Source of the DNA: Mobula hypostoma
Lineage: Eukaryota
Length of the DNA stretch: 64,000 nucleotides
Direction of reading: 5' to 3'
Assembly (NCBI RefSeq): GCF_963921235.1
Contig: NC_086108.1
Coordinates: forward strand, 44,208,001-44,272,000
In this document: positions 1,713 through 55,200 of the stretch, one piece after another
How the letters are laid out: every line of letters starts with the position of its first letter
Numbering within the stretch: position 1 is the stretch's first letter
Position numbers and translations under genes: made by a program
Notes under the pieces: generated by a model
Database searches by the model: none
Seen by the model: the letters and a program-made list of their open reading frames with translations, nothing else
What the model was told of the DNA's origin: nothing

Positions 1713-1859
1713 CCTTGCCCCTTTTATTAATATAGTTATGCAATATTAAGTATTTGTCCAAATTCGATTTTGGGGCAGTTTACCTTCTTTTTTGTCGAGA
1801 GACCTTTTCCTTACGCCGCCATTCCCTTGATGACCCGGAAGTCCCGCAAGTTGAGACAT

Positions 1860-3387: not shown

Positions 3388-3640
3388 TAACACACACAAA
3401 ATGCTGGAAGAACTCAGCAGGTCAGGCAGCATCTAGGGAAAGAAATAAACAGTCGCGTTTCTGGCCGAGACCCTTCATCATGACTGGCAAGGAAGTGGGG
3501 AGGAAGCCAGGATAAGAAGGTGGGAGGAGGAGGGGAGGGGAAGGAGTTCATGCTGGCAGGTGATGGGTGAAGGCAGGTGAGGGAGAAGGTAGGTGGATGG
3601 GGGAGGAAGGTTGAAGTGCAAAGCTGGGAGGTAATACTTG
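3388..3640 (-). mobile_element. Penelope-like element pseudo-LTR tail with degenerate hammerhead motif (3450-3486)
   Basis: Same tail sequence (acacacaaaatgctgg...cagcatct...gacccttcatca) as the coding PLE copies. Confidence 0.75.
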
Positions 3641-4249
3641 TGTGCTATACCACAAATATCACGTTTGATCTACAACATGAATAAAAAGATTGGCAGGAGG
3701 CACCTGGAGCAGGACAAGGATGTGTGAAGAAACAGAGGATGAGGAATCTTGGTATAAAATTGGATCCACCCAGACTGGGAGGCATCAGGTCTCCTGCCTA
3801 AGCAAACAAAAACAACTTTGCCACCTAATACATTGCAAACACAACCTCAGGCTGAAGCAAGGACTTCACTGTCAGCAGGTGTGGCTATAAACTTCTACTC
3901 TACATATAATGAGAGCCAGACTGTCACAGGACATGGCAGAATATTAGCATGTTCAAACACTTCCACTGTCTAGAAAACTCTGGACGATCACTGCAGCTCA
4001 TGTCGTATTTCAAGCCCAGACCCTTAGTATCCTGCAACACACTTCACAACCTTGCAATTATAAGAGCATTATTCTAGTCTCCAGACATCAACAAAGCAGC
4101 TAAAAAGAACAAAAGAGTCAACTTTGACGGTCTATTTGAGCAAATTACGATTAACTGATACAACCGCAGACTGCTGCAACATGGAAACAGAGTCTTTGGC
4201 TCAACTTGTCCACGTTGACTGTGTTGCTTACCAGCAACACCAGGCAACA

Positions 4250-8865: not shown

Positions 8866-9524
8866 TCAAGAACTGAACAAGTTCTCCAAATGTGGTATCA
8901 CCACTTCCCTACAGAGCTGTTTCACTAAGGAACCACTTTATTCTACATTCTTAAACAAGTGTGCAATTTTCCAACCACTGCAATGTCACCTCACTAGACA
9001 CTTTGATGTTCAGAGAATCCATAAATTGTAGAACATGTAAATAAAGCACAACTAAACCGAAGAACTCTTACCCTATTCATTCTTTACATTGTCATATAAG
9101 CTTTTAGTTTTTAAGTCTGAATGACCAGCAGACTGAGTCACATTGAGACCAAGGAGGAAACCTGCTTCACGAAACAGCATCCATGTACATCTAAAGTCAC
9201 AAACTGCTGAGGATGGCAATTGTGGCAAGGCAGCATTGAAAGGGTAAGTGTATCGGTGAAATATTTTTAAAAAATCAATGTCAAGCAATCTACATTAAAC
9301 AAGGAATTGCTACCAATATTGTTATATCTTGAGAACTGAATTCATTGCCCTATTGAAAGAGTTACCAAAAAGAACCACTTTGCCCCTCCCTCCAATTTCT
9401 TTCATTTCTTAACAACATATTTATTTTATTATCTTGGAAAAGTGATGCTGCTGAGCGTTTCACGGTAATTAACTATTTTACCATTGACATTTTTCTCAGG
9501 AGATTTAATTTTGCATTAATCAAA

Positions 9525-10572
9525 GCAACACACATAAAATGCTGGAGGAACTCAGCAGATCAGGCAGCATCTATGGAAAAGAGTAAACATGCTATGTCTC
9601 GGGCCGAGACCCTTCTTCAGGATTGGAAAGGAAGGGAGAAGACACCAGAATAAAAAGGTAGGTGGAGGGGAAGGAGGATAGCTGGAAGGTGATAGGTGAA
9701 GCCAGGTGGGTAGGAAAAGAAAAGGGCTGGAGAGGAAGGAATTTGATAGGAGAGGAGAGTGGACCATAGGAGAAAGGGAAGGAGGAGGGGACCCAGAGGG
9801 AGGCAACAGGCAGGTGAGAAGAAGTAAGAGACCAGAGTGGGGAATAGAAGATGAGGGTAGGGGGAGGGAAAATTACATGACTGGAAGGAGAAACTCATAT
9901 TCATGCAACCCAGTTGCAGGCTATCTAGATGGAATATGAAGTGATGCTCCTCCATCCTGAGGGTGGCCTCATTGCATCACAAGAGAAGGTCATGGACTGA
10001 CATGTCAGAACAAGAATGCAAATCGGAATTAAGGTGTTTGGCCACCGGGAAGTTCTGCTTTTGACAGATGAAGCACAGATGCTTGATGAAGCGGTTGCCC
10101 AATTTGCAGCAGGTCTCACCAATGCGTTGGAGGCTGCATTATACAATAGACAACAACAGCAGATTCACAGGTGAAGCGTTGCCTCACCTGGAAGGACCTC
10201 ACTGGTGAAAAAAAAAATCCCTCCCCCTCCCTCCTCTTCTTCTAATCCCCACTCTGGCCTCTTGCCTCTTCTCGCCAGCCTATTGCTTACCCCTGGGTCC
10301 CCTCCTCCTTCCCTTTCTCCAATGGTCCACTCTCCTCTCCTATCAGATTTTTTCTTCTCTCGCCCTTTACCTTTCTTACCCTCCTTCATTCACCTATCAC
10401 CTTCCGGCTATCTTCCTTCCCCTCCCCCACCTTTTTATTCTGGTGTCTTCCCCCGTTTCCTTTCCAGTCCTGAAGAACGGTCTCAGCCCGAAATCTTGCA
10501 TCTTCGTTCATTCCAGCATTTTGTGTGTCTTGCTTTGGATTTCCGGCAACTGCACAATTTCTTGTGTTAGTG
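9525..10572. mobile_element. Inverted PLE pair (minus copy about 9525-10197, plus copy about 10200-10570)
   Basis: Mirror-image pLTR sequence and GIY-YIG remnant; possible flanking duplication aatcaaa (9518-9524 / 10573-10579). Confidence 0.75.
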
Positions 10573-10669
10573 AATCAAATCCTGGTCTGATTGTTTCTGA
10601 TCTACATTGCACAGATGTATTCAGAGTGACAGGATAGGCATCTTTAAACTAATTTATCTGTCAATAACA

Positions 10670-10790
10670 CAAGAGATTCTAGAAGTCCAGAGCAACAGGC
10701 ACAAAATGCTGGAGGAACTCAGCCCGTCAGGCAGCATCTATGGAAACGAATAAACAGTCTACATTTCAGGCTGAGACCTTACATCAGATT
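10670..10790 (-). mobile_element. Short PLE tail fragment
   Basis: cacaaaatgctggaggaactcagc...catttcaggctgagacctt tail motif. Confidence 0.7.
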
Positions 10791-13160: not shown

Positions 13161-13583
13161 AAGACTCTAAATCTTACATATTTTTAAAATATTCCTTCAC
13201 TCAGGGAGCTAATGGGCCCAACTCACCACCAAGACTAAATCTGTCCGCTTACACCACCTACGTTAGAGACTTGTGTCCAAGGACCCACCCTCTTTGCCAG
13301 TGCCCAGCATTCATGCTTCTCCCTACCACTCAACCTGCTCCCATCTACCCAGCACCACCAACCACAGGAAGGATCGATGCCCCTCACTCGAAGGAAGCCC
13401 AATCAAGACACCAATTCTGCCTCTCATGGCTTCCTGCCTTCGCCCTCCGGGAATTTCAAGTACAGTATCCGTGGCTCACCAGGAGAATTGTGAATTCTGC
13501 ATTGCCGTGAATCAAGCAGGAGTTCTACACAGTGCTCTGGTCAATATTTAGCCCTCCATCTCATCAGAACAGATAGCTGATGA

Positions 13584-16253
13584 AACACACACAAAATGCT
13601 GGAGGAACTCAGCCGGCCGGGCAACGTCTATGGAAAAAAGCACAGTCGACATTTCAGGCCGAAATCCTTCAGCAGGACTGGAGAGAAAAAGTTAGGGAGT
13701 AGATTTGAAAGATGGGGGAAGGGAGAGAGAAACACCAGGCGATAGGTGAAACTTAGAGGGGGAGGGATGAAGAAAAGAACTAGGAAGTTGATTGGTGTAA
13801 GAGACAGAAGGCCATGGAAGAAAGATAAAAGTGGGGGGAGCACCAGAGGGAGGCGATGGGTGGGCAAGGAGGTAACATGAAAGAGGGAAAAGGGGATGGG
13901 AAATGGTGAAGGGGAGGGGGTGGGGCATTACTGGAAGCTTGATAAATCAGTGATCATGCCATCAGGTTGGAGGCAACCCAAACAAAATATAAGATGTTGT
14001 TCTTCCAACCTAAGTGTGGCCTTATCGCAACAGTGAAGGAGGCATGGATGGACATATTGGAATGGGAATGGGAAGTGGAATTAAAATGGGTGGACACTGA
14101 GAGATCCCGCTTGTTCTGGTGGACGGAGCGTAGATGCTTGGCGAAGCGGTCTCCCAATCTACGTCGGGTCTCACCGATATACACGAGGCCACACCGGGAG
14201 CACCGAACACAGTACATAACCCCAACAGACTCACAGGTGAAGTGTCGCCTCACCTGGAAGGACTGTTTGGGGCCCTGAATGGTAGTGAGAGGGGAAGTGT
14301 AGCACTTGTTCTGCTTGCAAGGATAAGTGCCAGAGGGAGATCAGTGGGGAAGCACAAATGGATATGGGAGTCACGTAGGGAGCGATCCCTGCGGAAAGCA
14401 GAAAGTGGGGAGGCAGAGGGAAAGATTTGATTAGTGGTGGCATTGAGTTGGAGGTGGCAGAAGAATTATGTGCTGGACATGGAAGCTGGAGGAAAGGACA
14501 AGGAGGACATCTCTTTGTTTTTTTAGAATGAAAAGCCTCATCCTGAGAGCAGATGCAGCGGAGACAGAGGAACTGAGAGAAGAGGATGGCGTTTTTACAA
14601 GTAGCAGGGTGGGGTGAGGTATAGTCCAGGTAGCTGTGAGAGTCCATTGGTTTATAATAGACTTCATGGATAAGTTGTCTCCGGAGATTGAGACAGTGAG
14701 ATCGGGAAAGGGAAGGGAAGTGTTGGAAATGCAGCAGATAAATTTGAGGCCAGGGTGGAAGCTGAAAGCAAAGTGGATGAAATCGACGAGTTCAGCATGG
14801 GTGCAGGAAGCAGCACCAATGCAGTTGTCGATGTAGTGTAGGAAAAGTGCAGGACGGTCACCAATGCAGGCTTGGGACACAAGTGTTCCACGTAGTCAAC
14901 AAACAGGCAGGCATAGCTAAGACCCCTGCGAGTGCCCATGGCTCCCCCTTTTGTTTGAAGGAAGTGGGAGGAGCCAAATGAGAAATTATTCAGAGTGAGG
15001 GCAAGTTCTGCTAGGCGGAAGAGAGTGGTGGTGGAGAGGAACTGGTTGGGTCTGGTGTCCAGAAAGAAACAAAGAGCTTTAAGGCATTCCTGATGGGAGA
15101 TGGAGGTGTATAGGGACTGGACATCTATAGTAAAAATAAGATGATGGGGTCAGGGAACCTGAAATCCTTGAAAAGCTCAATGCCTTCAATCGCAGCTCTT
15201 CCATTTCATGCACGTTTGCTCTTACCCCATCCTCTCGCCACCCAACCAGGGATAGGGTTCCTCTTGTAATCACCTACCACCCCACCAATCTCCGCATCCA
15301 GCACATAATTGTCTGAAATTTCCACCATCTCCAACTGGATCCCACCACCAAGCACATTTTTCTCTTCCCCCTCACTTCCTGCTTTCCACAGGGATTGCTC
15401 CCATCATGACTCCCTTGTCCATTCATCCTTCCCCACTGATCTCCCTCCTGGCACTTATCCTTGCAAGCAGAACAAGTGCTACACGTGCCCTTACACTTCC
15501 TCCCTCGCCACCATTCAGGGCCCCAAACAGTCCTTCCAGGTGAGGCAACACTTCACCTGTGAGTCTGCCGGGGTCATATACCGTGTTTGGTGCTCCTGGT
15601 GTGGCCTCCTCCATATCGGTGAGACCCGACGTAGATTGGGAGATCGCTTCGCTGAGCATCTACAATCCATGCGCTAGAACAAGCAGGATCTCCCAGTGGC
15701 CACCCATTTTAATTCCGCTTCCCATTCCCATTCTCTTATGTCCATCCATGGTCTCCTCCACTGTCGTGATAGCCACACTTAGGTTGGAGGAACAACACCT
15801 TATATTCCATTTGGATAGCCTCCAACCTGATGGCATGAATATCAATTTCTCAAACTTCCAGTAATGCCTTCCGCCCCCACCACCCTTCACCATTTCCCAA
15901 ACCCTTTTCCCTCTCTCATGTTATCTCCTTGCCCATCCATCACCTCCCTCTGGTGCTCCTCCCCCCTTTCTTCTTTCTTCCATGGCCTTCTGTCTCTTTC
16001 ACCAATCAACTTCCCAGCACTTTGCTTCATCCCTCCCCCTCCAAGTTTCACCTATTGCCTGGTGGTTCTCTCTCCCCTACCTCCACCCATCAAATCTACT
16101 CCTCAGGTTTTTTCTCAAGTCCTGCCAAAGGGTTTCAGCCCGAAACATCAACTGTGCTTTTTTTTCCATAGATGCTGCCTGGCCTGCTGGGTTCCTCCCG
16201 CATTTTGTGTGTGTTGCTTGAATTTCCAGTATCTGCAGATTTTCTCTTGTTTG
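13584..16253. mobile_element. Neptune-type PLE inserted as an inverted composite (minus arm 13584 to about 15174, plus arm about 15175-16253) with 13-bp TSD
   Basis: RT (HYIDNC, the YIDD motif), linker YPCKQNKCYTCP, GIY-YIG (VMYCVRCSRCGLVYIGETRRRLGDRF). TSD agatagctgatga at 13571-13583 and 16254-16266. Confidence 0.9.
13643..13680 (-). ncRNA. Minimal hammerhead ribozyme motif in a PLE pLTR (core substitutions)
   Basis: CAGTC-CTGCTGA-AGG-ATTTCGG-CCT-GAAAT-GTC-GACTG. Confidence 0.65.
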
Positions 16254-17094
16254 AGATAGCTGATGACCATCGTTTATGGAGCCTTGTTCTGCACTATTAT
16301 CTGCAATGTTTGTTAAATACCACCAAGGATATGATTCAAATATACATCACTTTCTGATACTCTGGGATATCTGCACATCATGAAAAACACTTCATAAGAC
16401 ACAAATTTTCTTTTATTCCTGAACCACGCTTCAGGTTTTCAGCCTTACAACAGAACTTGATAACCTTCAGTAACACTTGCTGGAAGTTTTGAAATACCAG
16501 CTTGTTGCCTCCATAAATTTATTCAGATTTCAGAAGTGAATTGTGTGCAAAGCATTCAAGATTACCAAGCTGGCTTGTAATGCTGTGCATGTTTGACACT
16601 GAAATCTAAAGGCCAAAAGCCACAGAAAATGCATAGGTATGAACTAACGGCCAATAAATAAGCATCGAATAGTCCAGGATACTTGGATTTTAAAAAGAGA
16701 TGGGTAAAATTAAAAAGGAGGATAATAAGAAAAGAAATAAAGACAGAAGAGAGAAAAGATCGCAGATCAAATAGAATAAATTTAGGCAGCTATAAAGGCA
16801 GCAAGGAGCAAAAACTTCCAGAAATGTTTACAAGTCTCACACAATCATGATACTGGAAAGCAGTTTACAAGTCAAGAAAGCAAAAGTTCTTGTAACAAGG
16901 AATATACAATAGATTAGATTACTAACCAATAACCAATAAATTAGTATTACATTTGTAGTTTTAAAATGGGATTGAAAACCAATAAATCCCCAGGACCTGT
17001 AGATCTGCAGTGCAATGTTTTGACTAAAGATGTTGAATGTACTGGCTGTGATCTTCTAAAATTCCATAGATTCCAGAATGGCTCCCACAGAATG

Positions 17095-23689: not shown

Positions 23690-24448
23690 GATTAGATTAT
23701 GAGGACACACAGTCCTCTTTTATTGGACGAAGGATCTCGGCCTGAAACGTCGACTGCACCTCTTCCTAGAGACGCTGCCTGGCCTGCTGCGTTCACCAGC
23801 AACTTTGATATGTGTTGCTTGTCCTCTTTTATTGTCATTGAGTAATGCATGCATTAAGTAATGATACAATGTTTTTCCAGAATGATATCACAGAAACACA
23901 TGACAAACCGACGGAAAAACTGACAAAAACCACATAATTATAACATATAGTTACAACAGTGCAAAGCAATACCGTAATTTGATAAGAACAGACCATGGGC
24001 ATGGTAAAAGTCTCAGAGTCTCTCGAAAGTCCCATCATCTCACGCAGACGGTAAACCTCCAGTGCCGCAAACTTGCCGATGCGGCATCCTGGAAGCATCT
24101 GACCAGAGTCCAACTCCGAGTCCGTCTGAAAACTCCGAGCCTCCGACCAGCTCTCCGACACCGAGCACCGAGCACCATCTCTGCCGAACACTTTGACCCC
24201 GGCCCCGGCAACAGGCAACAGGCAATAGGCAAAGCCAAGGATTTGGGGCTTTCCCCTCCAGAGATTCTCGATCGCACAGTAGCAGCAGCAGCGAAGGGGG
24301 CATTTCAGAAGTTTCACCAGGTGTTCCTCCGTGCTTCTTCACGTCTGTCTCCATCAAATCAGGATTGTGCACGGCATCCTAGTTCACAAATACGATATCA
24401 ATTCGGAGCGGCCACGTGTGCTGCATCACGCCATCTTCTCCTCCCTCC
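23690..24448 (-). mobile_element. Non-autonomous retroposon family X, copy 1
   Basis: Homologous end to end with 28291-28967 and 34171-34846; (TAATC)n 3' tail; possible TSD ttta. Confidence 0.8.
23726..23820 (+). mobile_element. 95-bp PLE tail insertion with 14-bp TSD
   Basis: TSD gtcctcttttattg at 23712-23725 and 23821-23834; the other two family X copies show the empty site. Confidence 0.9.
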
Positions 24449-26239: not shown

Positions 26240-26570
26240 CTGAGTTATCCTTTTTCCATCATTTCGGTGGCCCTCTCACTCCTTCTCTTCTCTTCCCCCT
26301 GCCCTCAGGACCTGCCCATCACCCCCCTGATTCCCCATCTCCTTCCCTTTATCCCATAGTCCATTGTCCTCTCCTGTCAGGTTCCTTCTTATTCAGCCCT
26401 TTGTCTTTTCCTCCTAGTAACTCCAAGCATCTCATACTGTCCCCCCCTCCCCCACCTGGTCTTACCTATCACTTGCTGGCTTGTTTTCCATCCCTTCCCT
26501 CCATCTTTTTATTCTGCCTTCTCCCTTCTTCCTTTCCAGTGTCGATGAAGGGCCTCAGCTGGAAATGGTG
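26240..26570 (+). mobile_element. Old PLE pseudo-LTR fragment
   Basis: Pyrimidine-rich pLTR ending in a degenerate gatgaagggcctcagctggaaa motif. Confidence 0.65.
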
Positions 26571-27260
26571 ATCAGGATCAGGTTTAATATCACTGGGACA
26601 GGCTGTGAAATCTGTTGTTACACAGCAGCAGCACATTGTAATACATAATAGTAAAACTGCAAATTACGTTAAGTATATAAGTTAAATTAATTATGTAGTG
26701 AAAAAAGAGAAAAAACTATATAGTGAGGTAGTGTTCAGGGGTTCAGTGTCCATTCAGACATCTGATAATGGAGGGGAAATGAAGGAGCTGTTCCTGAATC
26801 ATTGAGTGTGTGCATTCGGGCTTTTGTACCTGTTCCCTGATGGTGGAAATGAGAAGATGGCATGCCCTGGCTGATGGGGGTCCTTTTTGAGGCATCGCTC
26901 CACAGAAGATGTCCTGGATACTGGGGATGCTGGTGCCCACGATGGAGCTGACTGAGCTTACAACTTTCTGCAGCTTATTTCAATCCTGTGCAGTGTTCCC
27001 CCACACCGGACAGTGAGACAGCCAATTAGAATGCTCTCCACAGTATATCTGTAGAAATTTGCAAGTGTCCTTGGTGATATACCAAATCTCTTCAGACTCC
27101 TAATGGAATATAGTCGCAATCATGCCTTCTTCGTAATTGCATTGATATGTTGGGACCAGGTTAGACCCTCAGAGATATTGACACTGACACCCAGGAATTT
27201 GAAATTCCTCACCCTTTCCCCTTCTTATCCCTCTATGAGAACCGGTGTGTGTTCCCTCAT
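26571..27260 (-). mobile_element. Rex1/Babar LINE 3' fragment
   Basis: Reverse complement of the RT C-terminus and 3'UTR seen at 27493-29983. Confidence 0.75.
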
Positions 27261-28290
27261 CTTGAGCTACATGAGCTTCAAACACTGCAACAGATCAAGG
27301 AAGTGCAGAGTTACCTGATGTGGTGTTTCGGCAGGTAGTCACGCCCATTAGTCTAACTGCTGGGCAATACCATTTGTTTAATTTGGTCTGTAATTGGGGA
27401 CAAGGGCATGTGACAAGAGGTAGGTCTGGAGGAGCCTCAGCCCTAGAGCCTGTCCAACAGCTCTGAGATTCTTGCTCCCTATGAGGGCGATTGTGGTGTG
27501 TGTGCTTAGCCCACTGCTCTACTCTCTGTATACACATGACTGTGTGGCTAGGCATTGCTCAAATACCATCTATAAATTTGCTGACGATACAGCCATTGTT
27601 GGTAGAATCTCTGGTGGTGACAAGAGGGCGTACAGGACTCAGATATGCCAACTAGTGGCATGGTGCCACAGCAACAACCTGGCACTCAATGTCAGTAAGA
27701 CAAAAGAGCTGATTGTGGACTTCAGGAAGAGTAAGACAAAGGAGCACATGCCAATCCTCATAGAGGGATCAGAAGTGGAGAGAGTGAGCAGCTTCAAGTT
27801 CCTGGGTGTCAAGATCTCTGAGGATCTAACCTGGTCCCAACATATCAATGCAGTTATAAAGAAGGCAAGACAGCGGCTATACTTCATTAGGAGTTTGAAG
27901 AGATTTGGCATGTCAACAAATACACTCAAAAACTTCTATAGTTGTACCATGGAGAGCATTCTGACAGGCTGCATCAATGGTTGGTATGGTGGAGCTACAG
28001 CACAGCACCGAAAGAAACTGCAAAAGGTTGTAAATCTAGTCAGCTCCATCTTGGGCACTAGCCTACAAAGTACCCAGTACATCTTTAGGGAGTGGTGTCT
28101 CAGAAAGGCGGCATCCATTATTAAGGACCTCCAGCACCCACGGCATGCCCTTTTCTCACTGTTACCATCAAGTAGGAGATACAGAAGCCTGAAGGCACAC
28201 ACTCAGCGATTCAGGAACAGCTTCTTCCCCTCTGCCATCCAATTCCTAAATGGATATTGAAGCTTTGGGTAATATACAGTATTTCTGATT

Positions 28291-30602: not shown

Positions 30603-31168
30603 CTACTCTACTGTCAAGATGAAGCCACACTCAGGTTGGAGGAACAACACCTTATATTCCGTCTGGGTAGCCTCCAACCTGATGGCATGAACATTGACTT
30701 CTCTAACTTCCATTAATGCCCCACCTCCCCTTCGTACCCCATCCCTTATTCATTCATTCATTTATTTATTATTCTTTTCCCCCATTTTTCCTCTCTTTTT
30801 TCTCCCCCTGTCCCTCTCACTATAACTCCTTGCCCATCCTCTGGATCCCCCCCCCTTTCTTTCTCACTAGACCTCCCGTCCTATGATCCTCTTCTTTCTC
30901 CAGCCTCATATCCCTTTTGCCAATCAACTTCCCAGCTCTTAGCTCCATCCCTCCCCCTCCTGTCTTCTCCTATCATTTTGGATCTCCCCCTCCCCCTCCC
31001 ACTTTCAAATCTCTTACTATCTCTTCTTTCAGTTAGTCCTGACGAAGGGTCTTGGCCCAAAACGTCGACTGTACCTCTTCCTATAGATGCTGCCTGGCCT
31101 GCTGCGTTCACCAGCATTTTTGTTTTGGTGTGTGTTGCTTGAATTTCCAGCATCTGCAGATTTCCTCG
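30603..31168 (+). mobile_element. PLE 3' part (GIY-YIG C-terminus and pLTR) with hammerhead motif at 31035-31070
   Basis: [36 protein letters not shown] followed by pLTR. Confidence 0.88.
31035..31070 (+). ncRNA. Minimal type I hammerhead ribozyme motif in a PLE pLTR (G-to-A change in the GAAA box)
   Basis: AGTC-CTGACGA-A-GGG-TCTTGG-CCC-AAAAC-GTC-GACT. Confidence 0.75.
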
Positions 31169-33309
31169 GCTTTGCGTACACAATACTCCAAGTGTGGTCT
31201 CATGAGTGCCTTTATAGAGGCTCAACATCACATCCCTGCTCTTATATTCTATACTTCTAGAAATAAATGCCAACATTGCATTTGCCTTTTTCACACTGAC
31301 TCAACCTAGAGGTTAACCTTTAGAGTGTCTTGCACAAGGACTCCCAAGTCCCTCTGCATCTCTGCATTTTGAATGCTCTCTCCATCTAAATAATAGTCTG
31401 CCCATTTATTTCTTCCACCAAAGTGCATGACCACACACTTTCTAACATTGTGTTTCATTTGTCACTTCTTTGCCCATTCCCCTAAACTATCTAAGTCTCT
31501 CCGCAGGCTCTCTGTTTCCTCAACACTACCTGCTCCTCCACCTATCTTTGTATCATCGGCAAATTTAGCCACAAACCTATTAATTCCATTGTCTAAATAT
31601 CATTGACATACATCATAAGAAGCAGCGGTCCCAACATCGAACCCTGTGGAACTCCACTGGTAACTGGCAGCCAACCAGAAAAGGATCCTTTTATTCCCAC
31701 TCTCTGCTTTCTGCCGATCAGCCAATGCTCCACCCAGGCTGGTAGCTTCCCTGTAAATGCATGGACTCGAATTTTGCTAAGCAGCCTCTTGAGCGGCACC
31801 TTGTCAAAAGTCTTCTGAAAATCCAAGTACACCACATCCACTGCATCTCCCTTGTCTACCGTGCTTGTAATTTCCTCAAAAAATTGCAGTAGGTTAATCA
31901 AGCAGGACTTTCTTTTCAGGAAACCATGCTGGCTTTGGCCTATCTTGTCATGTGCCTCCAGGTACTCCATAATTTCATCCCTAACAATCGATTCCAACAA
32001 CTTCCCAACCACTGATGTCAGGTTAACAGGACTATAGTTTTGTTTCTGCTGCCTCCCACCCTTCTGAAATAGCGGAGTAACATTTGCAATTTTTCAGTCA
32101 TCTGGTACAATGCCAGAATCTATCGACTCTTGAAAGATCATTGTTAATGCCTCTGCAATCTCTCCAGCTGCTTCCTTCAGAACCCGAGAGTGCATTCCAT
32201 CAGGTCCAGGAGATTTATCCACCCTCAGACCATTAAGCTTCCTGAGCACCTCCTCAGTCGTAATTTTCACTGCACGTACTTCACTTCCCTGACACTCTTG
32301 AATGTCCGGTATACTGCAGATGTCTTCCACTATGAAGACTGATGCAAAATACGCATTCAGTTCCTCTGTCATCTCTGCATCTCTCATTACAATATTTCCA
32401 AAGGCATTTTCTATTGGTCCTATATCTACCCTTGACTCTTTTACCCTTTATATACTTAAAAAGCTTTTATCCTTTGATACTACTTGCCAGCTTCCTTTCA
32501 TAATTCATCTTTTCCTTCCTAATGACCTTCTTTGTTTCCTTCTGCAAGTTTTTAAAAGCTTCCCAATCCTCTATTTTCCCACTAGCATTGGCTTCCTTGT
32601 ATGCCCTCTCTTTTGCTTTTATTTTGGCTCTGACTTCACTTGTCAGCCACGGTAGTGTCTTTCTTCCATTCAAAAATTTCTTCTTATTTGGAATATATCT
32701 GCCTTGCACTTCCCTCATTTTCTCCAGAAACTCCAGCCATTGCCTCTCTGCTATCCTTCTTGCTAGTGTCCTTTTCCAGTCAACTTTGGCCAGTTCCCTT
32801 CTCATGCAATTGTAATTTCCTTTAATCCACTGAAATACTGACAGATTGGAATTTCGTTTCTCCTTCTCAAATTTAAAAGTGAACTCGATCATATTGTGAT
32901 CACTGTTCCCTTATCACCTCCGGATCATTGCACAACACCCAGTCCAGCACAGCCGATCCCCTAGTGGGTTCAACAATAAACTGTTCTAAAAAGCCATCCC
33001 TTAGACATTCTATAAATTCTGTCTCGAGGTCCAGCACTGGCCTGGTTTTCCCAACCCACTTTCATGTCAAAATCCCCAGTGATTATCATGACATTGCCCT
33101 TCTGACATGCCTTTTCCATCTCCTGCTGTAATTTGTAATCCACATCCCGGATGCTGTTTGGAAGCCTGTATTCCTCTTTCTCAGCCCCATCACTCTGGGT
33201 CCCATCCCCCTGCCAAATTAGTTTAAACCCTCCTTGACAGCTCTACTAAATGTGCCCGCTAGGATATTGGACCCCTTTGGGTTCAGGTGTAACCTGTCCT
33301 TTTTGTACA

Positions 33310-34846: not shown

Positions 34847-35359
34847 CATGCTATTCTTGCACTCACTCGCACATGGCACAGGCAGCAATCCTGAGATTAC
34901 TACCCTGGAGGTCCTGCTTTTCAGCTTCCTACCTAACTCCCTGAACTCTCTCTTCAGGACCTCCTCCCTTTTTCTCCCTCTGTCATTGTCACCAACATGG
35001 ACCAAGACTTCTGGCTGTTCACCTTCTCCCTTCAGAGGATACACATTCTATCGTAAAGATGAGCAGGTGGGATGGCTTTATTGGTAAAAATTGAAATCAA
35101 ATCCTTAGCAAGAAGTTTCATAGAATTAGAAGACAGAATCCTAACAAGTAGTGTTAAGAAAATGCAAGAATAAAAAGAACCTGAAGAAAGTTCACCCAAA
35201 CAGTAGCCAGAATGTGAGGGAACCAAATAGCAACAGTAGATGGTAAAGGCAAAGGGGAATTTCAATATTCAGGTAGACTGGGAAAAATCAGTTTGATCAA
35301 CACACACGCAAAATGCTGGTGAACGCAGCAGGCCAGGCAGCATCTATAGGAAGAGGTAC

Positions 35360-35395
35360 AGTCGATGTTTCGGGCCGAGACCCTTCGGCAGGACT
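35360..35395 (-). ncRNA. Minimal hammerhead ribozyme motif in a PLE pLTR (core substitutions)
   Basis: AGTC-CTGCCGA-A-GGG-TCTCGG-CCC-GAAAC-ATC-GACT. Confidence 0.65.
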
Positions 35396-35642
35396 AACTG
35401 AAAGAAAAGATAGTAAGAGATTTGAAAGTGGGAGAGAGAAGGGGAGATCTGAAATGATAGGAGAAGACAGGAGGGGAAAGGAATGGAGTTAAGAGCTGGA
35501 ACGTTGATTGGCAAAAGGGATACGAGGCTGGAGAAGGGAGAGGATCATGGGGCGGGAAGTCCAGGGACACAGAAAGGGGGAGGGGAGCCTAGAGGATGGG
35601 CAAGGAGTTATAGTGAGAGGGACAGTGGGAGAAAAAAAAAGG

Positions 35643-35822
35643 GGGAGAGGGAGAGGGAGAGGGAGAGGGAGAGGGAGAGGGAGAGGGAGAGGGAGAGGGA
35701 GAGGGAGAGGGAGAGGGAGAGGGAGAGGGAGAGGGAGAGGGAGAGGGAGAGGGAGAGGGAGAGGGAGAGGGAGAGGGAGAGGGAGAGGGAGAGGGAGAGG
35801 GAGAGGGAGAGGGAGAGGGAGA
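35643..35822. repeat. (GGGAGA)n hexamer microsatellite, about 30 units
   Basis: Read directly. Confidence 0.97.
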
Positions 35823-38109
35823 GAGAAAGAGAAAAATAAGGGATGGGGTACGAAGGGGAGGAGAGGCATTAATGGAAGTTAGAGAAGTCAAGTGTTCATG
35901 CCATCAGGTTGGAGGCTACCCAGACGGAATATAAAGTGTTGTTCCTCCAACCTGAGTATGGCTTCATCTTGACAGTAGAGGAGGCCGTGGATAGACATAT
36001 CAGAATGGGAATGGGACAAGGAATTAAAATGTGAGGCCACTGGGAGATCCTGCTTTCTCTGGTGGACAGAGCGTAGGTGTTCAGTGAAACGGTCTCCCAG
36101 TCTGCGTCGGGTCTTGCCAATGTATAGAAGGCCACATCGGGAGCAGCGGATGCAGTATATCACCCCAGCTGGCTCACAGGTGAAGTGTCGCCTCACCTGG
36201 AAGGACTGTCTGGGGCCCTGAATGGTGAAGGGAGGAAGTGCAAGGGCAGGTGTAGCACTTGTTCCACTTACAAGGATAAGTGCCGGGAGGGAGATCGGTG
36301 GGAAGGGATAGACAAGGAATAGACAAGGGAGTCGAGTAGGGAGCGATCCCTGTGGAAAGCAGGGGGGGAGGGAGGGAAAGATGTGCTTGGTGGTGGGATC
36401 CCGTTGGAGGTGGCGGAAGTTACGGAGAATTATATGTTGGACTCGGAGGCTGGTGGGGTGGTAGGTGAGGACAAGGGGACCCCTATTCCTAGTGGGGTGA
36501 CGGGAGGATGGGGTGAGAGCATATGTGCGTGAAATGGGAGAGATGCGTTTGACGGCAGAGTTGATGGTGGAGGAAGGGAAGCCCCTTTCTTTAAAAAAGG
36601 AAGACATCTCCTTCGTCCTGGAATGAAAAGCCTCATCCCGAGAGCAGATGCGGTGGAGACGGAGGAATTGTGAGAAGGGAATGGCATTTTTGCAAGAGAC
36701 ACGGTGGGAAGAGGAATAGTCCAGGTAGCTATGAGAGTCCATAGATTTATCGTAGACATCAATAGATAAACTGTCTCCAGAGATAGAAACAGAAAGATCT
36801 AGAAAGGGGAGGGAGGTGTCGGAAATGGACCAGGTAAACTTGAAGGCAGGGTGAAAGTTGGAGGCAAAGTTAATGAAGTCAATGAGCTCAGCATGCATGC
36901 AGGAAGCAGCGCCAATGCAGTCGTCGATGTAGCGAAGGAAAAGTGGGGGACAGATACCAGAATAGGCTTGGAACATGGATTGTTCCACAAAGCCAATAAA
37001 AAGGCAGGCATAGCTCGGACCCATGCGGGTGCCCATAGCTACACCTTTAGTTTGGAGGAAGTGGGAGGAGCCAAAGGAGAAATTATTAAGAGTAGATACT
37101 GCATCTCAAGAGAAGGAGTTTGTAGAATGCCTACAATATGGCTACTTCGGGCTTTTTGTGGCCGAGCCCATTAAGGAAAAGGCAACTTTGGACTTGGTGT
37201 TGTGCAATGAACCAGATTTTATTAAGGAGTTTAAGTAAAGGAATCTTTAGGAGACAGTGATATTAATATGCTAAAATTCACCCTGCATTTTGAGAGGTAG
37301 AAGCTAAAATCATATATACATATATATCTCTACCTCCACCATTATCTCTATATACCGTATCACTATATACCGTATCACTATATAAATAAAATCAGTATTA
37401 CAGTTGAGTAAAGGTAATAGCCAAAGTTGATAGATAGGAAGGGGAGACTAGCAGCGATGATGGTAGAGCAAAAATGACAGGAGTTTCTGGGAGTATTGCA
37501 AAAATTAGCAGGAAGCTAAAGGATTGGGAAGCTTTTAAAACCAATGGAAACAAACAAAGAAAACAATAATTGGAGAAAGGATGAAGTATGAAGAATGAAG
37601 ATAAGCAGACCAATAATATAAAAGTCTTTCCCCAGATATATATAAAGAGTAAAAGAGGCAAGAGTTGACATAAAATTATGGGAAAGTGACACTGGAGAAG
37701 TAGTAATGAAGTGCAAAGTACTGTAACAGCAGATGAACTGAAGTAGTATTTGGCATCAGTCTTCATTATGGAAAACACAAGCAACATGCTAAAAATTAGA
37801 GAGAGTTAAAGAGGCAGAAGTGAGTGTAGTCACTATTACTAAAGGAGAAGGTATTTGGGAAGCTGAAAGATTTGAATATAGATGAGTCACCTGGACCAAA
37901 TAGACTACACCTCATGGTTCTGAAAAAAGTAACTGAAGAGATTTTAGAGGTATTAGTTGTGATCTTTCAAGAATCACTAGATTCTGGAATGGTTCCAGAA
38001 CACTGGAAAATTGCAAATGGCATTCCACACTTAAATGAAGAGAGGAAACCAAAAGACAAGAAATTACAGTCCAATTAGCCTGATTTCAGTGGATGGTGGG
38101 GTTTTAGAG

Positions 38110-41100: not shown

Positions 41101-41965
41101 CTACAAAAGGATTCAGACAGATTAGGAGAATGGGTAAAGAAGTGGCAGACAGAATACAGTGTTGGAAAGCATATGGTCATGCACTCTGGCAGAAGAAAGG
41201 GTGGACTATTTTCAAAATGGAGAGAAAATACAAAAAACTGATGCACAAAGGGACTTGAGAGTCCTCATACAGGATTCTCTGAAGGTTAATTTACAGGTTG
41301 AGTCTGTGATGAGGAAGGCAAATGCAATGTTAGCATTCATTTCAAGAGGATTAGAATATAAAAACAAGGACGAAATGTAACTTTATAAAGCACTGGTGAA
41401 GCCTCACTTGGAGTATTGTGAGCAGTTTTGGGGTCCTTATCTTAGAAAGGATGTGCTGAAATTAAAGAGGGTTCAAAGAAGGCTCACAAAAAATGATTCC
41501 AGGATTGAATGGCTTGTCATATGAAGAATGTTCGATAGCTCTGGGCCTGTATTCACTGGAATTCAGAAGAATGAGGGGTGACCTCATTGAAACCTATTGA
41601 ATGGTGAAAGGTCTTGATAAAGTGGATATGGAGAGGATATTTCCTATGATGGACGAGTCTATGACCAGAGGATACAGCCTCAGAACAGAGGGCTGTCCTT
41701 TAAGAATGGAGATGAGGAACCTCTTTAGCCAGAGAGTACTGTAGCAAATCTGCGGAATTGCCACAGGCAGCTGTGGGGGCCAAGTCTTGACGTATGTTTA
41801 AAGCAGAGGTTGATAGATTCTTGATTGGTCAGAGCATGAGGGATACAGGGAGAAGGCAGGAGATTGGGGCTGAGAGAAAAATTGGATCAGCCATGATGAA
41901 ATGGTGGAGCAGACACACTGGGCCAAGTGACTTAATTCTGCTCCTATGTCTTATGATCTTATGAC
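38110..41965 (+). mobile_element. Near full-length degenerate CR1 (ORF1 with Cys-rich N-terminus and SGNH esterase; ORF2 APE-RT)
   Basis: MTDKIVQCSSCRMWE...CGKC; VVYVGTNDM; LKVLYLNVHS; GITESWL; SSVPQGSGLGP; KFADNMK; tail tcttatgatcttatg. Confidence 0.9.
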
Positions 41966-42587
41966 TATTAAGACCATAAGACATAGGTGCAGAATTAGGA
42001 CTATCACATCTCCTTCACCATTTGATCACGGCTGAGTTGCTTTCCCTCTCAACTCCTTTCTCCAGCCTTCTTCTCTTAACCTTTGATGCCCTTAATAAAA
42101 AGGAGATTATCAGATTCCACTATAAATGCACTCAGTGACATGGCCTCCATAACTATCAATGAATTGTGGCAATGAATTCCATAGCTTCATCACAAAGAGT
42201 AAATTGTTCCTCCTCATCTCTGTTCAAAAGGGGCATCGTTCAGTTCTGAGGCTGCGTCCTGTGGTTCTGGCCTTTCCCCTGTTGAAAATATGCTCCCATG
42301 ACCACTCTATAGAGGTCTTTCAATATTTGGTAGGTGTCAATGAGATATCCCCTCATTCTTCTAAACTCCAATGACTACATGTAAGGAGTTACCAAACGCT
42401 CCTTTCATTCCCAGTGTAATTCTCGTGAACCTCCTCTTGTCCTTCTCCAATCCAAACACATCTTTTCTAAGATAAGGAGCCCAAAACTGCCCACAATACT
42501 CCAAATGCCTTATAAAGACTCACCATTATATGCTTGTTTTTATACTTTATTTTTCTCCAAATGAATGCTAACATTGGATTTGCCTTC

Positions 42588-42677
42588 AAGCAACGCACAT
42601 CAAAATTGCTGGTGAACACAGCAGGCCAGGCAGCATCTCTAGGAAGAGGTACAGTCGATGTTTCGAGCTGAGACCCT
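42588..42677 (-). mobile_element. About 90-bp PLE tail insertion in a CR1
   Basis: PLE tail sequence interrupts the CR1; imperfect duplication tttgccttc / tttaccttt. Confidence 0.8.
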
Positions 42678-43476
42678 TTACCTTTCTTACTATTGATTAA
42701 ACCTACAAGTTAACCTTTAGAGGATCCATCACTGGGACACCTAAAGTATCTTTGCACTCTGAAGTCGCTCCCCAATTAGAAAATCATCTATGCCTTTATT
42801 TCTTCTGCCAAAGTGCATGACGATACAATTCCCCATGCTGTATTCTATCTGCTACTTCTTTATCTATTCTCCTAATCTATGCAAGTCCTTCTGCAAACTC
42901 CCTGCTTCCTCAATACAACCAGACCCGCCATATAGCTTTGGCCACAAAATCATCAATTCTGTTATCTAGATCATTAACATATAATGTGGAAAGTAGCAGA
43001 CTTAACACTGACCCCTGTGGAACACCAACAGTAACCGACAGAGAAGGATCCTATTTTGACCTCGCTCAAAAGTGTCCCCATTTTCTTAAGCTAGACAGAT
43101 AGGTAAACTTCTGTCCTAGTGTAGTTATAGTTTGAAGGTGGTTTTGTTATTTGCCAATGTGTTACGATATGCAAGGAGCCGATGTAAACAGACAGATCTT
43201 CTCTGCATTCTTGCAAATGGTAGATTCAAATATTGATTGAAGTTCCTTCTAACTAATAATGAAATGTACAAATGATATAAAATGGCCGACCTGATGACAA
43301 AAGCTAATTGCTTAACAATGCAATAATGAACAATCACAACAGCTGTGAGCACAAGTAAGCAGTGAGACCAAGTAATTACAAATAAAATAACAATCCAAAT
43401 CAGGTAAGATATAACACTCCCCACCTGGTACCTGTAAACTGAACTCATGACTTTCACAAAAAAAAACATTAAACAT

Positions 43477-45458
43477 TCATTCATTCAGGTGCCTTGCCAT
43501 TCGGCGTTGGTGATTATGTCTCTCCATCCATCACGGTCCCTGACCCTCCCAATTGTAGTTGTTGCCTCCCCTGTTTCTAACCATGATGTTATTCTACCTT
43601 TCATTTTCATTCTCTGTCTGCCTCTGCTTCTTTTTCCTTTCAGTTTTCCAGTTGTAACTAAATGTTCTAATGTCTCTCTTCGCATGATGTGTCCAAAGAA
43701 TTTTGATTGCTGTTTTCTGATTTTTTTTTTAAGTAATGTACGTTTTGTTTTCGTTCTCTATAGAACTTCTTTGTTGGTTATCCTGTCCGTATATGATATG
43801 TATAGCATTCTTCTGAGGAACCACATCTGTGCTGCACTCATTCTTTTCTCCACTGTATTTGAGTCGCAGCCATACATCAACATAGGAAGAATGTAGCAGC
43901 TGAGAGCTCTAAGGCAGATGTCAATTGCTATTTTCTTGTTCGTTAGGATGTTTCTCATTTCTATAAATGCTGTTCTTGCCATTGCTATTCTTGCTTTTAT
44001 GGCCGTTTCGCATTTGCCATCAGACGTTAACCATGATCCAAGGTACTTGAAGTTGTGAACTTGTTTCAGGATTTCATTTCCCAATACGATCCTACAGTTT
44101 GGGATATCAGGTTTCTTTGAAATTACCATTACTTCAGTTTTCTTTTTGTTAAAGGTTAGGCCAAGTCTTTCACTCTCTGTTTTGATGGTAGATACTAGTT
44201 TCTGTAAACTTACTTCGCTGTTTGCTATCAGTACTGTATCATCCACATAGCGGAGGTTGTTGATATTGTATCCTCCTATACTTATTCCAGGTAGGTCTTG
44301 TATGGTTCTCATGATGTTTTCACTGTACAGGGAGAACAGGTCTGGTGATAGAACACAACCCTGTCTGACTCCTCGCTTTATTGGCTCATATTCACCAATC
44401 TCGTTGTCTATCCGTACGGCTGCACTTCGTTGCCAGTAGAGATTCCTGATTATTCTTAGACCTTTTCCGTCGATATCAATATCTTTAAGCATTTTCTTTT
44501 TTTTTTTAATTTTATTTTTATTTGGATAAGGAATTCACAATTATCATGTACTTTTTTCACACATATAACCTTTTCCATTTTTTTATATGTATAAAATTAC
44601 AATTATTTATACATTCTTAAGTACACATTGAGATGATACAAAAGGAAAATAAACATTTAAATAGATAATTATGTACTGTGGTAAATCTAACCTATTAGGC
44701 TAAGTAATGAAATTAGTTGTTAAGAAAAATGGTAATAATAGTTTCCATACAACCCTTCTGGACCATTTCCACTGGTCCAATCTTTAAGCATTTTCATGAT
44801 GACTTCGTGTTTCACTGTGTCAAAGGCTTTGTGCAGTCAATGAAACAGAAGTATGGGTCTTGTTGTACTTCTATTGACCTTTCGATAATATTCCTGAGAA
44901 TATAAGTGGCGTTTGATGTTCCCTTGCCTTCGACAAAACTGCACCGTTCTTCATTGATCTCTGGTTTAATTGTGTTTCTTATTCTGAGCATGATGATTCT
45001 AAGTAGGATTTTTGTGAGGTGGTTCATTAAACTAATTGTTCTGTGTTGTCCACACTCTGTTGCACCTGGTTTCTTTGGCAGTGCAATGAATACGGTCTTT
45101 AAAAGATCTTCTGGTACTTTGCCACTGATGTATATTCTATTCAATAAGATTGTTAATTTCTCTACACCAAAATCTTCTTGCGCTTCATACATTTCAACCA
45201 GAATATTATCGGGTCCTGATGATTTCCCCTTTTGCATTTTCTTCATAGCATGTTCCACTTCTTCTTTCAGTATTGCTGGGCCCTCATTCTTGTTGCCAAT
45301 ATCGAAGTTGTCCTCTCGGTCTTTGTCATCGTATAGGTCTTTGATGTTTTCTGACCAACTTTGCATTACTTTTCCTTTTTCCATATTTGTAGAGCCGTCT
45401 TTTGCTTTTATACATCCTGTTATTGTCCCGCTTTTCTTCCTATTTGTGACCTCTTATT
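43477..45458 (-). mobile_element. RTE-clade LINE, 5'-truncated
   Basis: KSSGPDNI, ALPKKPGATECGQHRTISLM, GVRQGCVLSPDLF, NNLRYVDDTVL, FKYLGS; (tgaa)n tail; TSD attaaacat/attaaagat. Confidence 0.9.
44497..44779 (-). mobile_element. Poly(A)-tailed retroposed insert (L1 3'UTR or mRNA 3'UTR fragment) with 16-bp TSD
   Basis: TSD atctttaagcattttc at 44481-44496 and 44780-44795; AATAAA followed by poly(A) on the minus strand. Confidence 0.85.
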
Positions 45459-52260: not shown

Positions 52261-55200
52261 ATTATATTTCTGGATCATTGGGATCTCTTCTGGGGAAGGT
52301 CTGACCTGTACAAAAAGGACGGGCTGCACCTGAACTGGAAAGGGACCAATATCCTGGTGAGCAGGTTTGCTAGAGCTGTTGGGGAGGATTTAAACTAGTT
52401 TGGCAGGGGGGTGGGACTCAGAATGTGAGTGCAGAGATTAGGGTAGAAGGACAAGGGCATGATGCTATGTGTTCTGAGTTGGTGAGGAAGGACAGGCAGG
52501 GGACAAAACATAAATGTAGCCAGTTAGAGGGGTTGAAATGTGTCTATTTCAACGCGAGGAGTATTAGAAATAAGGGGAATGAACTTAGAGCATGGATCAG
52601 TGCGTGGAACTACGATGTTGTGGCCGTTACTGAAATTTGGTTGGAGGAAAGGGAGGGGGGAGTAGCATTACTGGTCAGGGATAGTATCACGGCTATAGAA
52701 AGGGAGGACGCTGCAGAGGGAGTGTCTACTGAGTTGGTGTGGGTGGAAGTCAGAAATAGGAAGGGATCAATCACTGTGCTGGGAGTAGTCTATAGGCCCC
52801 CAAATAGCCCTCGGGACACCGAGGAGCAGGTAAGCAGACTGATTTTAGAATGGTGCAGGAGATACAGGGTTGTAGTTATGGGTGATTTCAACTTCCCTCA
52901 TATCGACTGACACCTCCTGACTGCAAGGAGGGTAGATGGGGCTGAATTTGTCAGGTGTGTTCAAGAAGGATTCCTGACACAGTATGTCAGCCGGCCAATG
53001 AGAGTAGAGGCCATACTGGATCTAGTTCTGGGTAATGAACCTGGTCAGGTGGCAGACCTCTTGGCGGCGGGGGGGGGGGGAAGCATTTTGGTGAGAGTGA
53101 CCACAACTCCCTCTGCTTCAGCATAGCTATGGAAAAGGATAAAAACAGACAAAATGGGGAAGTGCTTAACTGGGGAAGGGCTAACTGGGGCAGGAACTAG
53201 TGAGAGTAAATTGGAAACAGATGTTCAAGGGTGAAAGCACAGATGTAATGTGGAGGAAGTTTAGGGACCACTTGTGCTGGGTTCAGGATAGGTTTGTCCC
53301 ACTGAGACAAGGAAAAAATGGTAGGAAAAGGGAACCATGGCTGACAAAACACATGAGGCAACTCGTCAAGAGGAAGAAGGATGCAGGAAGGGCTCATGAG
53401 AAATATAGGGTAGCCAGGAAGGAGCTTAAGAAAGGATTTAGGAGAGCTCGAAGGGGGCATGAGAAGGCCTTGACATGTAGGGTTAAGGAGAACCCCAAGG
53501 CATTCTATGCATATGTGAAGAACAGAAGGATGACAAGAATGAAGGTGGGGCCGCTAAAGGATAAAGAAGACAACATGTGCCTGGAGGCGGAGGAGATTGG
53601 GGAGGTCCTAAATGAATATTTTGCTTCAGTAGTCACAAGTGAAAAGGACTTTGATCAGGGTGAGGTCGAAATAGAACAGGCCTGTGTGCTGGACAATATG
53701 GAGATTAAGGAAGAAGAAGTGTTGGATCTTCTTAAAAACATCAAGATTGATAAGTCCCCAGGGCTGGACGTGATATACCCCAGGTTGCTGTGGGAAGTGA
53801 GAGAAGAGGTCGCTGGAGCAGTAGCTATGATCTTTGAATCCTCTTTGGCTGCAGGGGTGGTGCCGGAGGATTGGAGAATGGCAAATATAGTTCCCTTGTT
53901 TAAAAAGGTAACAGGGAGAATCCTGGGAACTATAGACTGGTGAGTCTTACGTCGGTGGTCTGCAAACTATTGGAAAGGATTCTTAAGAATAGGATCTACG
54001 AGCACTTGGAGAAGTACAGTCTACTCAAGGATAGTCAACATGGCTTTGTGAAGGAAGGTCGTGCCTCACGAGCCTAATTGAGTTTTTTTGAAGAGGTAAC
54101 AAAAGAAATCGATGAGGGTAGCATGGTAGATGCGGTGTACATGGATACTAGCAAGGCATTTGACAAGGTCCCCCACGAGAGACTCATCCAGGAAGTCATG
54201 AGGCATGGGATCAGTGGAACCTTGACTGTTTGGATAAAAAATTGGCTTAAAGGTAGAAAGCAGAGGGTAGTAGTGGAAGGAAAGTATTCTGCCTGGAGGT
54301 CGGTTACTAGTGGAGTGCCGCAAGGATCTGTCCTGGGACCCTTGCTCTTTGTGATTTTTATAAATGACCTGGATGAAGAGGCGGAAGGATGGGTGAGTAA
54401 GTTTGCAGATGACACGAAGATTGGAGGAGTTGTGGATGGAGCTGTAGGTTGTCGAAGGTTACAAGAGATTAGAGATAGGATGCAGAGTTGGGCAGTAAAG
54501 TGGCAGATGGAGTTCAATCTGGATAAGTGTGAGGTGATGCATTTTGGAAGAACAAACCAGAAGGCTGAGTACAGGGTTAATGGTCGGTTACTTAAGAATG
54601 TGGATGAACAGAGGGACCTCGGGGTTCAAATCCATACATCCCTCAAGGTCGCTGCACAGGTTGATAGGATAGTTAAGAAGGCCTATGGGATGCTAGGCTT
54701 CATTAATAGGGGGATTGAGTTCAAGAGTAGAGAGGTCATGCTGCAACTCTACAAATCTCTGGTGAGACCGCACTTAGGGTATGGTGTTCAGTTCTGGTCA
54801 CCTCATTATAGGAAGGATGTGGAAGCTATGGAAAGGGTGTAGAGGAGATTTAGCAGAATGTTGCCTGGATTGGAAAACAAGTCTTATTAGGCAAGGTTAG
54901 CAGAGCTGGGACTTTTCTCTTTGGAGCGTAGAAGGATGAGAGGGGACTTGATTGAGGTCTACAGGATTATGAGAGGCATAGATAGGGTGGATAGCCAGTA
55001 CCTGTTTCCGAGGGCACGAACAGCAAGCACTAGAGGGCATATGTACAAAGTTAAGGGAGGGAAGTTTAGGGGAGACATCAGGGGTAAGTGTTTTACACAG
55101 AGAGCTGTGGGTGCCTGGAATGACTTGCCAGGGATGGTGGTGGAGGCTAAAACATTAGGGGTATTTAACAGCCTCTTGGACAGGCACATGGATGAAAGAA

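Follow-up and report, generated by a model that had tools for sequence, protein, structure and literature searches.

The window, by which we mean the whole 64,000-nucleotide stretch analysed (C50:44208001-44272000 of a 3.48-Gb assembly), contains eleven related short motifs that are the 3' tails of Penelope-like retroelements (PLEs; Table 1). Local alignments to an intact genomic copy place every one of them within 0-2 bases of where a sequence-only reading of this DNA had put it, with five on the plus strand and six on the minus strand. They form one repeat family, alignable together with 100-400 bases of flank, as found by BLAST of positions 30941-31140 against the window and by an eleven-way alignment. 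A profile of intact genomic tails recovered ten of the eleven at E <= 0.01; the copy at 26540 was too decayed for this profile and threshold, yet could be aligned by eye. Matches to a 31-base consensus with three or fewer mismatches numbered two in the window and none in 100 shuffles, and a chance origin of the motif matches is excluded.

Table 1. Hammerhead motifs and associated PLE reading frames in the window (window coordinates)
Feature	Position	Strand	Tail copy	Core changes and remarks
Hammerhead motif	3450-3485	-	3382-3750	C3 to A, C11.1 to A, U16.1 deleted
Hammerhead motif	9588-9624	-	9476-9734	A13 to G, G16.2 to A, broken stem I
PLE ORF C-terminus with 9590 tail	9884-10208	-		
Hammerhead motif	10466-10498	+		C15.2 to T, plus one G-to-C (given as G16.2 or G10.1); head-to-head with 9590 copy
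5'-truncated copy	10755-10787	-		Begins at CUGA box; A9 to T, C15.2 to T
Hammerhead motif, older lineage	13643-13679	-	13536-13955	A6 to C, C15.2 to T
PLE ORF pieces with 13643 tail	14047-15173	-		
PLE ORF pieces with 16118 tail	15191-15840	+		
Hammerhead motif, older lineage	16118-16154	+	15837-16267	A6 to C, G8 to A, G16.2 to A; head-to-head with 13643 copy
5'-truncated copy	23726-23756	+		Begins at G5; without stem I 5' strand and C3-U4
Heavily decayed motif	26538-26571	+		Several changes; cut off 3' of GAAAT
Hammerhead motif	31035-31071	+	30687-31186	Only core change G12 to A (CpG transition); loop TCTTGG
Hammerhead motif	35359-35395	-	35290-35640	A6 to C, G16.2 to A
3' half of PLE reading frame, 405 aa	35888-37105	-		End ~490 bases upstream of 35360 motif
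5'-truncated copy	42652-42678	-		Begins ~A9; without CUGANG part of box

The copy at 31035 reads AGTC CTGACGA A GGGTCTTGGCCC AAAAC GTC GACTG. Alignments confirmed the claim that no window copy is free of core changes and truncation, which holds for eleven of eleven; CpG sites mutated from C to T or from G to A make up most of the changes. The window copies are themselves inert, none having a competent core. The window also holds five other retroelement frames (762-1745(-), 6058-6681(+), 27424-28260(+), 43758-44534(-) and 54078-54842(+)), one with a weak L1 ORF1-like match and four matching RVT_1, none of which is PLE by tblastn with the PLE protein P0004. At 41930-42000(+) lies a near-perfect 71-base hairpin that scored 28.2 bits against mir-1784 (gathering score 98; E 0.18) and is probably the inverted repeat of a small element. 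Several of the motifs had been thought to lie in the sense of an ACOT11-like pre-mRNA; whole-genome scans for the START (PF01852) and 4HBT (PF03061) domains gave no match in the window and the gene was not confirmed, a result that is no evidence of absence because exon-by-exon detection is weak.

The attribution of the tails to PLEs is borne out by RT plus GIY-YIG reading frames upstream of them and by tandem pLTR-ORF-pLTR arrays elsewhere in the genome. Searches by tblastn with P0004 (806 aa) detected the end of the PLE ORF upstream of four tails (9590, 13643, 16118 and 35360), and the other tails in the window are short 5'-truncated copies. The 405-aa frame associated with the 35360 tail aligns with residues 396-800 of P0004 (47% identity, E 3.6e-106; tblastn). 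Its translation comprises the end of an RT with the YIDD signature (RYIDDCIG), followed by a GIY-YIG region (GVIY...YIGKT; GVIYCIRCSRCGLLYIGKT) whose Pfam score of 22.2 bits is slightly below the cut-off of 22.6. A search among proteins of 710-2,025 aa returned 82 homologues at E <= 0.001, P0004 among them, the best with 44-47% identity across the whole query; among the homologues listed, nearly all had PF28514 and PF26215, most had RVT_1 and about a quarter had GIY-YIG in precomputed Pfam annotations.

The position of the motif within the element is regular. Among 30 loci with an intact motif, ten have a PLE ORF whose end is ~315-350 bases upstream of it, and the motif lies ~320 bases past the stop codon and 65-105 bases before the 3' end of the insertion. 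Tandem arrays at loci L083 and L084 are built of 3,513-3,516 bp units, each with the ORF and one motif, and at L075 and L080 a motif is found ~1 kb upstream of a near-full-length ORF. At these four loci the motif is present in both repeats around the RT plus GIY-YIG ORF, which is the pLTR-ORF-pLTR layout described for PLEs (PMC4209133; PMC8557442). The order of RT then GIY-YIG, and the occurrence of 5'-truncated, tandem and inverted insertions, are those of PLEs with a C-terminal endonuclease (layout as in PMC8557442). A 157-aa N-terminal ORF query gave 19,315 first-look candidates genome-wide; the 150 candidates scored reached E <= 7e-52 without exception, and long open frames were frequent among them, 1,043 aa being a recurring length. 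With its 3.5-kb tandem arrays, these 19,315 candidates and many long frames, the family looks recently active.

Several further features of the elements were observed. Two internally deleted derivatives, with the PLE 5' region fused to the 3' UTR immediately before the motif in one and the ORF end fused to the hammerhead at a common CCTGA in the other, were found at L012 (oriented) ~1170-1500 and L036:4611-4715. A (CTCTCC)n microsatellite at ~35650-35830 of the window lies within the 3' UTR of the 35360 copy. In every subfamily seen, a polypyrimidine run ending in CAG and resembling a 3' splice site abuts the 5' strand of stem I (L083:4960-4999; window 31010-31034 and equivalents), which is reminiscent of Drosophila virilis, where an intron ends at helix I (PMC4209133).

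We took base counts from the window plus 200 kb on each side (464 kb; C50:44008001-44472000), which was scanned with a profile built from 16 intact tails. This gave 77 tail matches, of which 57 span the whole motif and 12 part of it. The consensus of the 57 copies is (C/T)AGTC CTGA(C/T)GA A GGGT CTCG GCC(C/T) GAAAC GTC GACTG and has every core base (C3 U4 G5 A6 N7 G8 A9, G12 A13 A14, A15.1, U16.1 and C17). All 13 core bases are the majority base in these copies, which come from several subfamilies. Variation is concentrated at A6, where 9 of 56 copies have C, and at five CpG sites, and the remaining positions, core or non-core, are 89-100% conserved. It looks as if masters with an intact motif gave rise to the copies, which have since been decaying neutrally, and the absence of an intact copy from the window is explained by decay mainly through transitions at the five CpG sites.

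The claim of an intact family consensus is thus upheld, the majority base being correct at every core position. A consensus lacking intact CUGANGA and GAAA boxes had been named as a result that would count against a hammerhead; both boxes are intact here. The consensus letters first proposed, (C)AGTC CTGAYGA AGGG TCTCGG CCC GAAAC GTC GACT(G), needed amendment at N7 and at the last base of helix II, since the form most frequent genome-wide has C at N7 and ends helix II with CCT rather than CCC.

In the 3.48-Gb genome the exact 33-base consensus occurs 1,105 times and a reversed control pattern not at all. When N7, the loop and H17 were left free, intact copies numbered 16,824 with CCC at the end of helix II (C11.1) and 49,598 with CCT (U11.1), again with zero matches to each reversed control, so that at least 66,422 intact-core copies are present; the corresponding bases in the 464-kb sample were 29 C and 25 T. 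Eleven of the 57 motif-spanning copies in that sample are intact, against 8.9 expected from the genome density, and none of these eleven lies in the window. Extrapolation from the 464-kb sample gives roughly 4 x 10^5 motif-bearing tails in the genome. The expectation of a very large number of hammerhead motifs therefore proved correct.

Judged by its sequence, the motif is a minimal type I hammerhead signature of a known kind (Cervera and de la Pena 2014). The core boxes, the bulged base and the GUC triplet follow one another in the order that such a ribozyme requires, as had been proposed, with a loopless, palindromic ACGU in place of stem III and GAAAC followed directly by GUC. An A is bulged between A9 and 10.1 in 57 of 57 copies. 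Helix I would have 5 bp (UAGUC or CAGUC with GACUG) and helix II 4 bp (GGGU/GCCY), closed by a CUCG or UCCG tetraloop. Stems I and II are nearly identical in all subfamilies, the sole difference being U.G versus C-G at 2.5-1.5, and no compensatory changes in them were found among the subfamilies seen in this genome. Rfam hammerhead models matched neither the window nor the intact L083 copy at the gathering score or at E <= 10; this says little, because the library models need a stem III hairpin and the motif is without one.

Two lineages depart from the standard core or its border. The U11.1 form, in which G.U replaces the conserved G10.1-C11.1 pair, is the commonest and most uniform variant; it is the form present in the tandem arrays and next to the open frame of 1,043 aa. 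In an older PLE lineage, which has an ORF of its own, eight of the nine copies seen carry C at A6 (CUGCYGA; L086-L090 and the window copies 13643 and 16118), and 1,050 copies genome-wide carry C6 and are otherwise intact. Changes at A6 were strongly inactivating in classical hammerhead mutagenesis; if this is right, the C6 lineage would have spread without an active core. Our literature search gave nothing decisive on the effect of U11.1 or C6 on activity.

Folding predictions bear on the same question. With ViennaRNA the double-hammerhead fold, which can be written as a nested two-strand structure, has energies of -12.9 kcal/mol in the CCU form and -17.9 kcal/mol in the CCC form, and is not the energy optimum, which for the dimer is an extended duplex (-31.7 and -32.9 kcal/mol, respectively). 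The monomer is predicted to fold best as a rod hairpin, with GAYG from the CUGAYGA box base-paired to CGUC. PLE minimal hammerheads have low activity in vitro and cleave weakly as dimers (PMC4209133), and in an Anolis PLE cleavage needs protein and depends on C3 and G8 (PMC11167929). The rod optimum and the poor double-hammerhead energy agree with both of these reports. According to PMC11167929, cleavage of the Anolis PLE is also dispensable for insertion in vitro, and no RNA-seq ends fall at the cut site. The two variant lineages and the computed energies temper the idea of a self-cleaving progenitor.

Weighing these results, we think it probable that the eleven motifs are dead PLE tail fragments with a mutated or truncated hammerhead, and that the intact motif self-cleaves after GUC, weakly and only when paired. 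Two motifs, carried on one tandem transcript or on two RNAs, would pair through ACGU to form a double hammerhead in which each enzyme half cleaves its partner RNA after GUC. Assistance from the protein that the element encodes is probable, and the cut may serve to trim tandem or read-through transcripts to unit length. These steps (double hammerhead, protein help and trimming) we infer from PMC4209133, PMC6765202 and PMC11167929. On this analysis the tens of thousands of intact genomic copies would likely cut RNA weakly and in pairs.

The ends of PLE copies provide a second view of the motif. Among 52 tail matches in the 464-kb sample that start near the motif and were read by eye, 17 run on upstream as the 3' UTR of another subfamily; ten are solo copies with unrelated upstream DNA that start between -6 and +6 of C3, including the window copies 10755, 23726 and 42650; 19 rows (12 events) are arms of head-to-head pairs with the junction in or beside the motif; three are irregular; and three are truncated further 3', one of them (L059:7759-7827) beginning one base past the predicted cut site. 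Truncation in the 140 bases downstream of the motif edge was confined to these three copies. The 5' truncations and head-to-head junctions thus cluster at the 5' edge of the motif and not at the cut site. The literature passages on PLEs available to us contain no statement of such clustering. We rejected this boundary as a trace of self-cleavage, the cut site lying 30 bases further 3' with one copy starting there.

Head-to-head pairs of PLE tails (minus then plus) occur in the window at 9476-10580 and 13536-16267, and PLEs are already known for inverted partners with truncated 5' ends (PMC8557442). Seven pairs are joined within the hammerhead itself, where one arm begins in the 5' half of the motif and its partner in the 3' half (L059:783-923, L067:9628-9768, L045:3820-3960, L066:8548-8688, L043:9426-9566, L065:6120-6260 and L058:3876-4016). 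The two arms of a pair share private variants, which favours snap-back copying of a single template and makes an origin from a dimer of two RNAs less likely.

One reading of the conserved block is that it serves the PLE RT chiefly as a structured site for recognition or stopping, a rod hairpin ~65-105 bases upstream of the priming site, in which the hammerhead core is a vestige or passenger and catalysis is irrelevant to spread. We hold this to be unlikely, but several observations fit it: folding predicts a rod hairpin as the optimum, the U11.1 and C6 lineages were amplified anyway, and the ten solo starts and 12 head-to-head junctions would mark where RT ended or switched template. Loop II and the downstream tail are moreover conserved across subfamilies and the upstream 3' UTR is not, which counts for a stop element because catalysis needs neither. 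The dispensability of cleavage in vitro (PMC11167929) points the same way, as do the success of PLE clades that lack hammerheads and the possibility that these motifs 'simply parasitize PLEs' (both PMC8557442). A plain hairpin, however, needs none of the 13 core bases, which are kept at majority in the 57 copies and are all present in the 66,422 genomic ones. Motifs of this class are associated with PLEs throughout the eukaryotes (PMC4209133), the C3/G8 dependence of cleavage of the Anolis motif (PMC11167929) speaks for catalysis, and the G.U at 10.1-11.1 still keeps G10.1.

A related proposal, that the block is chiefly the place where PLE RT ends or turns back, that the 100-140-base hammerhead-plus-tail is the real unit of spread and that catalysis is dispensable, we likewise regard as doubtful. 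It builds on the finding that roughly one insertion event in three terminates or inverts no more than a dozen bases from the 5' edge, compared with hardly any at GUC, and on the identity of the lineages, that now amplifying being U11.1 and the older one C6.

It is quite improbable, in our judgement, that the 100-140-base unit is a non-autonomous SINE-like or retrozyme-like element, with most motifs not being truncated PLEs and the PLE enzyme copying short RNAs whose start is the motif's 5' edge. The sharp limit of the unit at the 5' strand of stem I would fit such an element, as would contig depth, which was derived from four runs of contigs of unknown kind and used only for copy-number steps and joints. 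Depth increases 5- to 10-fold at L083 4988 and drops by a factor of more than 40 past 5131, and the contigs include a few tail-to-head joints from 5117-5131 back to 4999-5001. Animal retrozymes derived from PLE pLTRs offer a precedent (bioRxiv 10.64898/2026.07.22.740005). Against this, short copies share private variants with the long copies of their own subfamily, a separate promoter or head region was not seen, and among the 200 matches listed tandem short units are rare and close same-strand pairs absent; internal initiation on the upstream pLTR or early template switching would also give the same pattern. That a GC-rich palindromic tail resembles a hammerhead by chance, as the lack of an Rfam match and of compensatory changes in stems I and II among subfamilies might suggest, is extremely improbable given boxes, bulged base, GUC and palindromic stem III in the right order and spacing, in a block of the PLE pLTR exactly as described for the family (PMC4209133).

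With a weakly active, pair-dependent hammerhead as the preferred reading, the general picture is mostly unchanged: a known PLE trait is confirmed in a cartilaginous fish, and the copies in the window have no activity. The use of the result is as a resource: this genome offers a very large natural set of at least 66,422 minimal hammerheads with intact cores, which includes two lineage-level variants in or near the core, U11.1 and C6. The fossil 5' ends of PLE copies could be mined for whether cleavage ever precedes reverse transcription, a question that bears on the role of PLE hammerheads.

Minimal hammerheads in PLEs are already known in other animals. The statement that PLE pseudo-LTRs carry minimal type I hammerheads, thought to cleave as dimers, agrees with PMC4209133 and PMC6765202, the latter citing Lunse et al. 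2017 (its ref. 134) as a further report. The traits given in PMC4209133 are the core boxes, a base between A9 and 10.1, G10.1-C11.1, a palindromic 15.2-16.2, no loop 3, a short helix I, a long helix II and a motif in both pLTRs. Like those of metazoan PLEs (PMC4209133), the motifs described here are type I, with CUGANGA and GAAA boxes, palindromic ACGU and no loop 3, share the unpaired base and the short helix I, and occur once per pLTR around an RT plus GIY-YIG frame, mostly as dispersed single motifs from truncated copies and with opposite-strand pairs 100-700 bp apart. They differ in that helix II is 4 bp with a tetraloop, compared with 6-8 bp, and in that the commonest lineage has G10.1.U11.1 and one lineage has C6. 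Intact motifs number 66,422 here, against ~4,000 in the coelacanth and ~9,000 in Xenopus (PMC4209133), under differing criteria. Rfam Hammerhead_1 and its relatives share the catalytic core and the arrangement of stems I and II; the motif here is without their stem III hairpin.

A further comparison is with Anolis Poseidon PAc (PMC11167929), for which protein-assisted cleavage is shown, and which is likewise a vertebrate PLE with a pLTR hammerhead, an internal RT start and a genomic 'tail' signature. The PAc ORF begins at hammerhead stem II, whereas the motif here lies ~320 bases past the stop codon, with ~1 kb between it and the point where ORF similarity starts in the following unit. Animal non-LTR retrozymes (PMC7229834; bioRxiv 10.64898/2026.07.22.740005) also carry type I hammerheads acting as dimers, are derived from PLE pLTRs and have been found in a cartilaginous fish; theirs are tandem short repeats that give rise to circular RNAs, whereas the short units described here are mostly solo or head-to-head.
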